Source: an uncultured Acidobacteriota bacterium
Lineage (GTDB): Bacteria; Acidobacteriota; Blastocatellia; RBC074
Assembly: GCA_963796275.1 (NCBI GenBank)
Contig: CAWCKY010000007.1
Location: forward strand, 416,001-480,000
Direction: 5' to 3'
Length of the DNA: 64,000 nucleotides
Part shown: positions 10,740 to 26,299 of the stretch, piece after piece
Layout of the letters: every line of letters starts with the position of its first letter
Numbering within the stretch: the first letter of the stretch is position 1
The notes under the pieces: model-generated
What the model saw: the letters and a program-made list of their open reading frames with translations, nothing else
What the model was told of the DNA's origin: nothing
The model's database searches: none
Made by a program: the position numbers and the translations under genes

Positions 10740-11345
10740 ATGAGTTGGTACGATCCAGACAAAGAAGATACTACCATTTACAAAGTCGTCGTAAACCATG
10801 AGGAGCAATATTCGATCTGGCCTGAATACAAAGAGGATCCGCTTGGTTGGACGGAGGTCGGGAAGGCTGGGTCGAAAGCGGAATGTCTGGCTTATATCAA
10901 TGAAGTGTGGACGGATATGCGGCCTCTCAGTCTTAGAAAAAAGATGGATGAAATTGCTAAAAATCCGCCGCCTCCTCCTCCACCGCCCGATCCGAACAAG
11001 CCGCGGGAAAAGGGTCTCCTCGACAGACTTTGTGAAGGCGACCATCCAGTCGAAGTTAGTTTACGCCCTGAGAAGACAGTGAGGCTCTTCAAGGAAGCGA
11101 TCGATCGCGATTATGTGCATATTAAATTCACCAAGACTAAGGGCGGCACCGAACTGGGTGTTAGGTTGGATCGTGACGATTGTGACTTCACCAAAGCTGA
11201 TTTCGAGAACGGGAGTGGAACGGTTCGTCTCGAGGGAGGACTGACGCTGGATTATGTGAAGGTCAAGTGCATCGCCGATCTGGCTCTTGCAACACTCGAA
11301 GGAACTGGCCATCTTGTAAGGGTTGAGGCGAGTGGGGAGAGTTGA
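10740..11345 (+). CDS. mbtH: MbtH-like NRPS accessory protein with poly-Pro linker and extra C-terminal domain
   Basis: [13 protein letters not shown]...PLGW...[18 protein letters not shown]btH signature; AGGAGG RBS; about 110 extra aa after PPPPPPP. Confidence 0.92.
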
Positions 11346-11461
11346 AGTCGAAAAGGAAAGTTATAGGCTCATTGGGAATTCGCGTGGTAAACCCAAGATA
11401 TAGTGGTCTTGAAACAAAAAAATTATGGTAAGCTTCTGCTCCCCCTCCAAAATCGATAAAT

Positions 11462-11524
11462 TGTCAGGGCTCACGACATCGTGTACTGATTCTTATTGAA
11501 AAAAAGCTCAGGACATCGTGGACT
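11462..11524 (+). mobile_element. Possible orphan IS481-type element end
   Basis: TGTcagg followed by 19-bp direct repeats gctcacgacatcgtgtact / gctcaggacatcgtggact; no transposase nearby. Confidence 0.35.
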
Positions 11525-12313
11525 CTGAGAAAAAATTTGAAAATTTGTCAGGAGAAATCGCTAGAAAGCCCTAGTGACAGGCTCTCCAGCGCTTTCTCGG
11601 CATGACTATCCTGGGAATCTTCGTAATTTTATACAGATACTACAAATGCTAATTGATATCTTAATCGGAACATAGTAAGCTTAGATAGGTAGTTATTGCT
11701 TAATACAATATATAAAATAAATACCATTCAAGTAATTTCTTCGGCTTTTGCTTCGTATCATCGCTCTTAATATTGTAAGTATGCGAAAACAAACAAGCTG
11801 CCACTTTAAGGTTCTCACTATGCGATGTCATTTCCCACCACCCCCCTACATCGCTATGATCATCGACATCTTTAGTTGTAAGTTATCCCCCCTTCAAGAA
11901 AAAATAAATCAGCATAAGGCTCTAGTGAATAGCAGCGCATCAATGACACTTTCATTGTGACAACCGGAATGTTAGTGGACATAAGTAATGCCATTTCCCA
12001 AGTCCCACTGATTATTTCCCCCATAAACTGAAATTACAGAAGGTTAGCCACTGGTTCGACCAGTGAGGCTAGAAAAGCTTTGAGCGTTCCAGGAGTTTAG
12101 TACCTTCTCTTTCGGAGATTGGTGAGCCAAATCCAAAGGGGAATTTAATGAACAAGAACCATCAAAGCTTGTCCCATTCTAGGTGGATTTACGTGTAACA
12201 GACTTTTTTTCAAGAGAAATGCGACGGGAGACTGTGTGAACTGGGTTCGGGTTTCTTCAAGATCGGCATTCACGGGCGGCAAGTCTCCTCTGTTAGAACA
12301 TCCGGAATAACCT

Positions 12314-24995: not shown

Positions 24996-25176
24996 GCTCA
25001 ATGATTGGTGATGGATTGCCTGGGGCGTCCGTGTTCCAAGCATCAGGATTCGGTTAAACCTTCTTTTGAATAGGATTTATTTATTGCAATCGGAGAGCAA
25101 GACGATGAACTCGGAGAAAATATGGTGTGACCAGTGAGCATCGGTGACGCAAGATGTACCCAGCCCTCTGCCTGCC

Positions 25177-25214
25177 GAATTGAATTGAATTGAATTGATT
25201 GAATTGATTTGAAT
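25177..25214. repeat. GAATT pentamer microsatellite
   Basis: gaattgaattgaattgaattgattgaattgatttgaat directly after the Ldh_2 stop codon. Confidence 0.8.
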
Positions 25215-26299
25215 CAATCGAACGGAATCCCAGTAATGGAGGCCAGGTCGCGTAATTCCTTGACCACGGAAGGGAGCAGCTGCACGCCGTCCCGTGAATG
25301 TTGATCACGAGCTATTCGCTCAGGGTCGCCTGGGATGAGCGGCCCATCGGTGCCGGGAGCCGGTTTGGTCTCGCGGAAAACACGAACCCACTCATCGATC
25401 CGTTGCTTGAACTCATCCGGATCGATAAAGCCGTCAATTCGTAGGGCGCCAAAAAAATGGCCGATGCCTTTTCCCACAGCACGCTTCGACGGTTTCAGAT
25501 GAAACGGAAACGGGGGGACGAAAGGCCCCCAGTTGGCACCACTTAATATTCCACACAGAATATCGACCATGGCGCTCAGACAGTAGCCTTTATGGCCGCC
25601 GTGTTCGCGGTCGACGCCGAGAGGGAGAATGGCTCCCCCATTGATCATCTCCACAGGGTAGACGGTCGCCCGCCCCTCGCCGTCGATAATCCACCCGGTG
25701 GGCACGGTCTCGGATTTACGAATGGCGTTCTCAATTTTTCCGTAAGATGTCGAACTCGTCGCCAAATCGATGACGATTGGCGACTCTTGGTAACCGGGAA
25801 ATGCGATGGCGATGGGATTGGTACCGAGCATCCGTTCCCCGCCCCACAAAGGTGCTACCTGGGGTGTGGTATTGGTCATGGCCCACCCAATCAGATCATA
25901 CTTCAAGGCATTCCAGGGATAGTAGCCTGCGATACCAAAATGGGAAGAATTACAGACGCTGACCCATCCGGCTCCAACCGCTACGGCTTTCTCCATCGCG
26001 ATCTGATTGGCCTTAGGTCCGACGACGAGACCGAGGCCATTATCGCCATCCAGAGCGGCGCAGGCCGGCAGCTGGCGGATGATCTGTATGTTAGGTCGCG
26101 GATTGGAGATGCCGCGAGTTAACATCTCATAGTAGTTGCGCAACCGCGCTACACCATGCGTGTCGATCCCCCAGGAATCTGCAGTAACCAGTACCTCAGC
26201 AGCTTGCGCCGCATCTTCCGCAGGAAGATTACAGTGAAGGAAGATACGCCGGGAAAACTCCAACAGATGATCCACCGGATAACCGGTTTGAGTAGGCAT
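25214..26299 (-). CDS. Ldh_2 (type-2 malate/L-lactate dehydrogenase) family oxidoreductase
   Basis: ADSWGIDTHGVARL, LDGDNGLG, SSHFGIAGYY, LGTNPIAIAFP, GGHKGYCL, LIPGDPE. Confidence 0.93.
   Translation of the reverse strand: MPTQTGYPVDHLLEFSRRIFLHCNLPAEDAAQAAEVLVTADSWGIDTHGVARLRNYYEMLTRGISNPRPNIQIIRQLPACAALDGDNGLGLVVGPKANQIAMEKAVAVGAGWVSVCNSSHFGIAGYYPWNALKYDLIGWAMTNTTPQVAPLWGGERMLGTNPIAIAFPGYQESPIVIDLATSSTSYGKIENAIRKSETVPTGWIIDGEGRATVYPVEMINGGAILPLGVDREHGGHKGYCLSAMVDILCGILSGANWGPFVPPFPFHLKPSKRAVGKGIGHFFGALRIDGFIDPDEFKQRIDEWVRVFRETKPAPGTDGPLIPGDPERIARDQHSRDGVQLLPSVVKELRDLASITGIPFD

Follow-up and report, generated by a model that had tools for sequence, protein, structure and literature searches.

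A putative Hmo-less arylglycine pathway in a nonribosomal peptide synthetase cluster of an uncultured Acidobacteriota bacterium, with an Ldh_2-family dehydrogenase as the candidate oxidation step

Glycopeptide and lipopeptide antibiotics, as well as semisynthetic beta-lactams, contain hydroxyphenylglycine and phenylglycine as building blocks. To our knowledge, the only biosynthetic oxidation step described in the supply of 4-hydroxyphenylglycine (Hpg) or phenylglycine (Phg) is the one carried out by the H2O2-forming flavoenzyme Hmo. The described system with which the locus reported here is most readily compared is the actinomycete HmaS-Hmo-HpgT route to L-4-hydroxyphenylglycine, which serves the synthesis of glycopeptides, the calcium-dependent antibiotic (CDA) and nocardicin. 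Positions 10740-26299 of the window, i.e., the whole 64-kb stretch of DNA that was analyzed, from an uncultured Acidobacteriota bacterium, resemble this route in that a dioxygenase of the 4-hydroxyphenylpyruvate dioxygenase (HPPD) fold, with the Ile of a GNI motif and an ..EP motif without Asn, is encoded beside an aminotransferase (AT) and a nonribosomal peptide synthetase (NRPS). The locus differs from the actinomycete route in that neither the window nor the genome carries an FMN_dh gene, and a gene for an Ldh_2-family dehydrogenase is linked to the cluster instead.

On comparative grounds, this region is probably one NRPS cluster that makes its own arylglycine by a three-enzyme, Hmo-less route in which Ldh_2 performs the oxidation; the arylglycine building block is most likely Hpg. 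In the proposed pathway, the HPPD paralogue would act as a 4-hydroxymandelate synthase (HmaS) on 4-hydroxyphenylpyruvate, with phenylpyruvate as a possible alternative substrate, as suggested by its residues, its clade and its context. Ldh_2 would then use NAD(P)+ to oxidize the L-2-hydroxy acid to 4-hydroxybenzoylformate, a role to which the linkage of the gene points, and the adjacent MocR-like AT would turn this oxo acid into the amino acid, a step that could pull the unfavorable dehydrogenase equilibrium forward. The trimodular NRPS, together with an MbtH-fusion helper protein, is predicted to assemble Leu-Phe-X, where X is the substrate of the third adenylation domain (A3), probably the arylglycine, and the thioesterase (TE) domain would release the peptide product. 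A reading made from the letters of the window alone (hereafter, the sequence-only reading) had proposed that arylglycine is supplied without Hmo and that Ldh_2 is the candidate for the missing step, and this predicted pathway is now supported by the tree and residues of the dioxygenase, by the lack of a genomic hmo gene and by recurrent gene linkage.

The two-domain HPPD-type vicinal oxygen chelate (VOC) fold of the dioxygenase is supported by matches to Pfam Glyoxalase, Glyoxalase_5 and TIGR01263. Its metal ligands H181, H259 and E338, the last of which is encoded behind a frameshift, are invariant in an alignment of the HPPD family. The four motifs that the sequence-only reading had quoted as HmaS-type were all found in the translation (DHIAISV, YSAMNSK, FPVMEP and GGGNIKALF). 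Compared with canonical HPPD, GNF is changed to GNI, PINEP to PVMEP and DHxVGN to DHIAIS, with Ile standing for the Phe of GNF and Met for the Asn of PINEP. For the Streptomyces avermitilis HPPD variant F337I (equivalent to human F364), the parts of PMC3739788 and PMC13260116 that deal with these residues report a loss of ~98% of activity and the formation of hydroxymandelate and an oxepinone besides homogentisate; for human HPPD, they report that N241S uncouples homogentisate formation. As translated, the dioxygenase of the window lacks the Phe and the Asn that homogentisate formation needs. A canonical HPPD is encoded elsewhere in the same genome (C1:563642-564700; 451 bits to TIGR01263), next to an open reading frame (ORF) that by eye resembles an aromatic amino-acid hydroxylase, and the dioxygenase of the window is therefore an extra, divergent paralogue.

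In the assembly, the dioxygenase ORF is split by a +1 frameshift, caused by one extra base at ~13246; frame 1 ends with ..ELKIPG*, and frame 2 runs on to the stop codon at 13427-13429. Logan contigs from the soil runs X2, X3 and X4 cover this whole stretch with ~96% identity (85-92 differences over ~2370 bases), and in each of the three there is one base fewer at 13246, whereby ELKILVDRD and an intact frame are restored. Since the frame is intact in three related soil contigs, the break most probably reflects an error of the assembly or a lesion in a single strain and not a property of the cluster. The same three contigs are also one base shorter at 13451, where a TTT run separates the dioxygenase gene from that of the AT, and the two extra bases together suggest assembly indel errors.

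A read-through translation across the frameshift (P0002, in which one residue, P312, is wrong) was used to fetch 12 relatives of the dioxygenase, nine variant and three canonical. The nine variant relatives share DHxA(I/V), YSAMN, an ..EP motif without Asn, GNI and DRDQWGY, while the three canonical ones show DHCVGN, ALMSK, PINEP and GNF; NRPS ORFs adjoin all nine variant loci of this first scan. A scan with a generic HPPD pattern yielded 79 new loci, 77 of which have GNF plus P[IL]NEP or PLNEP and two of which are variant, and both the Phe of GNF and the Asn of PINEP are kept in all 77 canonical loci. The motif combination of the window dioxygenase is not due to chance. A degenerate DNA pattern for GFGxGNI..AL gave 120 tiles of 8 kb, which, combined with the earlier loci, represent 96 non-redundant GNI-type HPPD-family loci. 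In a tree of 111 rows with SH-aLRT support, a weak backbone and an arbitrary root, the window dioxygenase falls into a 95% SH-aLRT set of nine rows, along with the enzymes of Herpetosiphon aurantiacus (L185; L numbers denote loci of the survey) and of Pyrinomonadaceae. The 29 canonical HPPDs, among them the one encoded in the genome of the window, are grouped in a separate 100% clade, inside which the variants of Paenibacillaceae are also found, and the dioxygenases of Streptomyces cassettes are separate from the window set. The frame-repaired enzyme, which had been called HmaS-type from its residues, thus groups with NRPS-linked HmaS-type enzymes and apart from the 29 canonical HPPDs.

The sequence-only reading had found no Hmo-type (FMN_dh) gene in the window, which is correct, and a genome-wide search with PF01070 extended this observation to the source genome (G000; 9.46 Mb, 7 contigs, 94.74% complete; the window is G000:C7:416001-480000), where no Hmo-type FMN oxidase was detected. 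The search gave six weak matches. Among these, the best-scoring ORF reaches the model of type-2 isopentenyl diphosphate (IPP) isomerase, TIGR02151, with 358 bits; by eye, the second is IPP-isomerase-like and the third nitronate-monooxygenase-like. No LUD domain was found in this genome either.

The Ldh_2 gene of the window is the single copy in this genome and is convergent on the NRPS gene, 219 bp past its stop codon. The nearest solved relatives of the encoded protein are the L-2-hydroxy-acid dehydrogenases 1v9n (259 bits) and 2x06 (L-sulfolactate dehydrogenase; 216 bits), and the ketimine reductase DpkA scores 105 bits. The protein stays below the NCBIfam equivalog cut-offs for the sulfolactate, ureidoglycolate and YbiC-type enzymes, with 245.6, 181.7 and 162.7 bits vs. 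cut-offs of 500, 356 and 336. Cassette content across the 96 dioxygenase loci was assessed by frame-agnostic tblastn, as ORF calls are unreliable in the high-GC Gemmatimonadota loci, and the combination of dioxygenase, AT and Ldh_2 was found in 11 further loci that span Gemmatimonadota and Acidobacteriota. Ldh_2 is encoded on the same strand in eight cassettes (L009, L110, L122, L157, L167, L184, L207/L300 and L201/L298, where L298 completes L201) and is divergent in three (L164, L175 and L189). In L184, a single ORF of 800 aa encodes both the AT (residues 43-425) and Ldh_2 (residues 447-798). In all five Ldh_2-cassette genomes searched, the cassette copy is the sole Ldh_2.

Analyses of the family to which the window belongs (87 genomes, 17 genera) revealed a close Ldh_2 in only three genomes, G000, G070 and G085, and a distant one in G073; the GNI pattern was found in only two, G000 and G085. 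G085 represents another genus of the family, and its Ldh_2 is convergent behind the NRPS as in G000. One contig of G085 encodes MbtH, a flavin monooxygenase, a type II thioesterase, the dioxygenase, the AT, a short-chain dehydrogenase/reductase (SDR) and an NRPS, and a second contig encodes the end of an NRPS (..A-T), a phosphopantetheinyl transferase (PPTase), the convergent Ldh_2 and then a halogenase-like protein. In a 91-row Ldh_2 tree, 13 cluster-linked proteins, together with L223 and L224, are split by a 96% branch from the other 76. In total, 12 loci besides the window combine dioxygenase, AT and Ldh_2. HmaS, AT and Ldh_2 therefore occur together repeatedly without an adjacent Hmo, including an AT::Ldh_2 fusion and the syntenic cluster of G085, which is the co-occurrence that the sequence-only reading had named as a check. 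Judged from these comparisons, Ldh_2 belongs to the cluster.

A widespread branch of Ldh_2 (L231, L245, L251, L260, L274 and others among L223-L302) has another genomic context, in which the gene lies directly behind one for a ~398-aa DAO-family FAD oxidoreductase. This DAO-Ldh_2 pair was seen in Planctomycetota, Verrucomicrobiota and Rhodothermales.

The AT is MocR-like/MppQ-like; among NCBIfam models, PdxR-type and MppQ match it best, with all scores below the cut-offs. It is 44-62% identical to the ATs that adjoin the variant dioxygenase in other loci and represents a candidate HpgT analogue.

The third cassette position was surveyed across other bacteria in 8-kb tiles, where 47 loci carried the dioxygenase with a MocR-like AT; 32 of these could be scored and 15 were too short. 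In the scored loci, the third gene is Ldh_2 in 10, LarA-like in four (L018, L024, L150 and L151, Acidobacteriota, behind dioxygenase and AT), FMN_dh in three (L183, L025 and L137), GlcD-like in two and LutABC in one (L007, Acidobacteriota), and there is none in 12. FMN_dh was also found in L146 and L149, where it adjoins only the dioxygenase, and the classical order dioxygenase-FMN_dh-AT is present in the Streptomyces loci L133, L161, L162, L165 and L197. All five genomes with a LarA-like or LutABC third gene carry neither Ldh_2 nor a full FMN_dh, and this mutual exclusion is the pattern expected of non-orthologous displacement. GlcD-like genes were found in six Paenibacillaceae loci, with a class I/II AT in L109 and L130 and a class IV AT in L112, L181, L210 and L212; the position of the Paenibacillaceae dioxygenases inside the canonical HPPD clade suggests a separate origin. 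Only tentatively, we suggest that outside actinomycetes 2-hydroxy-acid enzymes of unrelated kinds may have taken over the Hmo step on several occasions, in the same position of the cassette, i.e., Ldh_2, the LutABC iron-sulfur lactate oxidase, a GlcD-like FAD oxidase and a LarA homologue. If the LarA reading is true, it would imply either a nickel-pincer enzyme, which would give net oxidation or pass on its bound oxo acid for transamination, or a branch of the pathway that depends on a racemase.

The survey also recovered GNI-type dioxygenases with other neighbors. Those of Micromonospora (L105, L108, L113, L123, L128, L138, L141, L154, L155, L158, L174, L176, L182, L205 and L220) occur in another conserved setting, in which the tile contains neither AT nor FMN_dh and the neighbors across the tiles include PhyH, the E1 dehydrogenase component, a transketolase-like protein, a ketosynthase, an AMP-binding enzyme and DUF3050; these dioxygenases probably serve a different pathway. 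In L016, L116 and L196 (Oleiagrimonas, Frateuria and a metagenome-assembled genome of an uncultured proteobacterium), the variant dioxygenase is followed by a protein with DUF6875 and an aminoacyl-tRNA-editing domain, inside NRPS clusters.

Pfam matches, core motifs and sequence give the domain order of the NRPS as partial condensation (C), A1, thiolation (T), C, A2, T, C, A3, T and TE. The partial C domain of module 1 is near-identical to the second halves of C2 and C3. Long near-identical stretches are shared among modules 1-3 (end of A, T and C; 15069-15896 and 17268-21488), which suggests either that duplication within the gene, or gene conversion, took place recently or that there is a risk of misassembly. 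The A-domain codes were set from core motifs, with the textbook-looking codes of A1 and A2 as a check. We take the A1 code to be Leu-type and the A2 code to be Phe-type; the PDB relatives of A2 include GrsA (1amu, 350 bits) and TycA (385 bits). The code nearest to that of A3 in the survey is DILHLGHMFK, which agrees at seven of 10 positions and belongs to the A domain directly behind the Streptomyces dioxygenase-FMN_dh-AT cassette L197. A3 also shares His278, Leu299 and Gly301 with what we take to be the Hpg code, and an arylglycine is a candidate substrate of this domain. No epimerization (E) domains were found in the NRPS, and there is no room for any within its 3407 aa. C2 and C3 carry FHHLMGGESD near their N-termini, and HHLTMDH; from a motif that we presume to be diagnostic, they would be of the dual E/C type, and residues 1 and 2 of the peptide would hence be D-configured. 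A TubC_N-type docking domain, considered for the N-terminus of the NRPS, found no support in Pfam.

The MbtH-fusion protein is composed of an MbtH domain, a poly-Pro linker and a C-terminal domain of ~105 aa (11016-11342), for which no Pfam match was found. In the HmaS-containing Ktedonobacteria loci L025 and L121, MbtH genes are followed at a distance of a few hundred bases by genes for homologues of this C-terminal domain with 50-52% identity. At the G085 locus (L305), the match to the fusion protein is limited to the MbtH part.

A number of observations weigh against the proposed pathway, and those that concern the dioxygenase raise the question of whether it could be an ordinary or decayed HPPD, paired with a tyrosine aminotransferase in tyrosine catabolism or pigment formation, without a role in arylglycine supply and a pseudogene in this strain. 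The N-terminal piece by itself exceeds the TIGR01263 cut-off (280.5 vs. 277 bits), the top PDB match is an HPPD (1t47 of S. avermitilis, 328 bits) ahead of the HmaS entries 3zgj (245 bits) and 2r5v (214 bits), the reading frame is broken in the assembly, and tyrosine aminotransferase and HPPD are an established catabolic pair. Moreover, the enzyme keeps the Pro of FPVMEP, two residues ahead of the replaced Asn, at a position where Streptomyces cassette enzymes, which stood in for the solved entries 2r5v and 3zgj in the residue comparison to HmaS, have Thr (LTLIEP, FTLVEP and FTIIEP), a residue that we assume to matter for actinomycete HmaS. The GNI motif itself is also found among HPPDs; the GNI-type L177 falls inside the canonical HPPD clade, and the HPPD of L200 (Neobacillus niacini), next to a homogentisate-dioxygenase-like gene, combines GNI with PINEP and DHVVGN. 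Because L200 pairs GNI with PINEP, the Ile of GNI is insufficient alone to call an enzyme HmaS. An ordinary HPPD nevertheless appears highly improbable, given that the genome already encodes a canonical one beside the hydroxylase-like ORF, that both residues tied to homogentisate formation are replaced, that the position inside NRPS clusters is conserved and that the gene is intact in three related contigs.

Other points against the proposed pathway concern the oxidation step. The Ldh_2 gene, being convergent, is not co-transcribed with the other cluster genes; its closest relative (74%; L223, from G070 of the same genus) lies on a 14.9-kb contig without dioxygenase, AT or NRPS, and G070 (87% complete) shows only a canonical-type HPPD. 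No synteny was found between the flanks of the window and the Ldh_2 loci L223 or L224, and, among the 80 nearest Ldh_2 loci of the genome collection, 78 show no linkage to the cassette; many of these are instead paired with a DAO-family flavoenzyme. In addition, three GlcD-like FAD oxidases (FAD-oxidase_C) and two LarA-like genes are encoded elsewhere in G000, and these unlinked genes could perform the oxidation instead. Ldh_2 might accordingly be a bystander that is adjacent by coincidence, with an unlinked enzyme such as a GlcD-like FAD oxidase in charge of the oxidation, as would also fit with the GlcD-like genes that adjoin the dioxygenase in the six Paenibacillaceae loci and with the 12 of 32 scorable dioxygenase-AT loci that have no partner oxidoreductase nearby. 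We consider this unlikely, since, in a genome of 9.46 Mb, a single-copy gene is found less than 220 bp from the NRPS stop codon, the arrangement recurs in G085 while a close Ldh_2 is absent from 84 and the GNI pattern from 85 of the 87 family genomes, 11 further loci are linked, one as a fusion, and the cluster-linked proteins form a separate tree branch. Slightly less unlikely is that Ldh_2 is a genuine cluster gene with another role, i.e., that it reduces 4-hydroxyphenylpyruvate or 4-hydroxybenzoylformate for salvage or pool balance, sets stereochemistry with another enzyme or acts on an imine. The linkage data show cluster membership and not the reaction, characterized Ldh_2 enzymes are presumed to run mostly reductively, the wider subfamily pairs with DAO-type flavoenzymes, and LarA-like proteins, which we take to be racemases, fill the same slot in four loci, a hint that this slot need not hold a net oxidase. 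NAD-linked oxidation of a 2-hydroxy acid is also thermodynamically uphill, and, among the five Ldh_2-cassette genomes searched, two carry a full FMN_dh elsewhere, one carries a fragment and two carry none. By comparison, this oxidation is all that is needed to turn the HmaS product into the AT substrate, no FMN_dh candidate exists in three of six cassette genomes, the fusion of the AT to Ldh_2 is an argument for one enzyme using what the other produces, and DpkA-type imine reductases are distant from Ldh_2. With regard to the product, the A3 code equals no Hpg code among those we presume to be established, and no recurrent A-domain code was found beside the surveyed cassettes.

Gene families in the window were assigned by Pfam and NCBIfam profile matches, and the coordinates of the cluster are given in Table 1. 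Pfam matches and ORF reading placed MbtH, the HPPD-fold dioxygenase, the class I/II AT, the three-module NRPS and the convergent Ldh_2 where the sequence-only reading had located them. The MbtH-fusion gene is separated from the dioxygenase gene by a 970-bp gap, the cluster is flanked by genes for a TonB-dependent receptor and a TonB-like protein, and no second NRPS or polyketide synthase (PKS) gene was found elsewhere in the 64-kb window. Upstream of the cluster, positions 8001-12000 are AT-rich (GC 0.43 vs. ~0.55 elsewhere) and contain mostly short ORFs, among them an Imm26-like ORF at 8909-9292. On the other side, at 29336-30899, there are two overlapping minus-strand ORFs, one of 367 aa with an Exo_endo_phos domain and one of 162 aa without an assigned family, which may be one gene split by another indel.

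Table 1. Genes and NRPS domains of the cluster, in window coordinates.
Feature	Position	Strand	Remarks
MbtH-fusion gene	10740..11345	+	201 aa; PF03621, residues 6-55, 78 bits
HmaS-type HPPD-fold dioxygenase (putative)	12314..13429	+	pieces 12314-13255 and a 58-aa C-terminal piece; TIGR01263 280.5 and 95.5 bits
Class I/II aminotransferase (AT)	13431..14678	+	PF00155 (Aminotran_1_2) 113 bits; likely start ATG 13473
NRPS, 3407 aa	14772..24995	+	three Condensation, three AMP-binding, three PP-binding and one Thioesterase Pfam matches; likely start ATG 14895
Partial C domain, C-terminal half, head of module 1	15069..15896	+	residues ~100-375; no HHxxxD upstream
A1 adenylation domain	15924..17351	+	code DAWFLGNVVK
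A2 adenylation domain	19179..20606	+	code DAWTIAAVCK
A3 adenylation domain	22404..23861	+	code DALHLGCTFK
Thioesterase (TE) domain	24192..24971	+	PF00975 90 bits, NRPS residues 3141-3260; GYSFG motif
Ldh_2-family dehydrogenase	25214..26299	-	PF02615 369.5 bits vs. cut-off 38.8; model positions 3-332 of 333

A full-text literature search, which covered few subscription journals, found no report of an Ldh_2 member that acts on mandelates or serves Hpg synthesis, no paper that links hydroxymandelate or Hpg with Ldh_2, YbiC or HcxB and no paper that links Hpg with Acidobacteria. Engineered cascades to phenylglycine and hydroxyphenylglycine are described in PMC8715069 and PMC10991500. If the proposed pathway is true, an NAD(P)-linked dehydrogenase for L-hydroxymandelate that is coupled in nature, and in one instance fused, to its transaminase could represent a peroxide-free and cofactor-recyclable part for such cascades. 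It would further provide a genome-mining rule for arylglycine supply in Acidobacteriota and Gemmatimonadota clusters that searches based on Hmo overlook, as well as an extra substrate class for the poorly characterized Ldh_2 family.

The dioxygenase of the window is 32-37% and the AT 27-29% identical to their counterparts in the Streptomyces cassettes. Canonical HPPD, as defined by TIGR01263, resembles the window dioxygenase in fold, length and the H181/H259/E338 ligands and differs in context, which in the window is an NRPS. The Herpetosiphon genome paper, PMC3368417, states that Hpg genes are present in the cluster of this organism and cites Kastner et al. 2012 (Arch Microbiol) for them. The H. 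aurantiacus locus is similar to the window in that its dioxygenase, which scores 454 bits against that of the window and has GNIKAL and FPMQEP, is followed by a 58%-identical AT. Herpetosiphon differs in that it has no Ldh_2 and in that a full FMN_dh is located ~64 kb away from its dioxygenase. The Ldh_2 protein has in common with the dehydrogenases of Pyrococcus horikoshii (1v9n), Methanocaldococcus jannaschii (2x06) and Escherichia coli (YbiC, 2g8y) a full-length PF02615 match, and, when aligned to 1v9n, it keeps HGV.RL, S.H.GIAGYY, GTNP and GGHKGY. Set beside these systems, the use of Ldh_2 in place of Hmo would represent a new variation on the known Hpg pathway, one that is well supported by comparative genomics.

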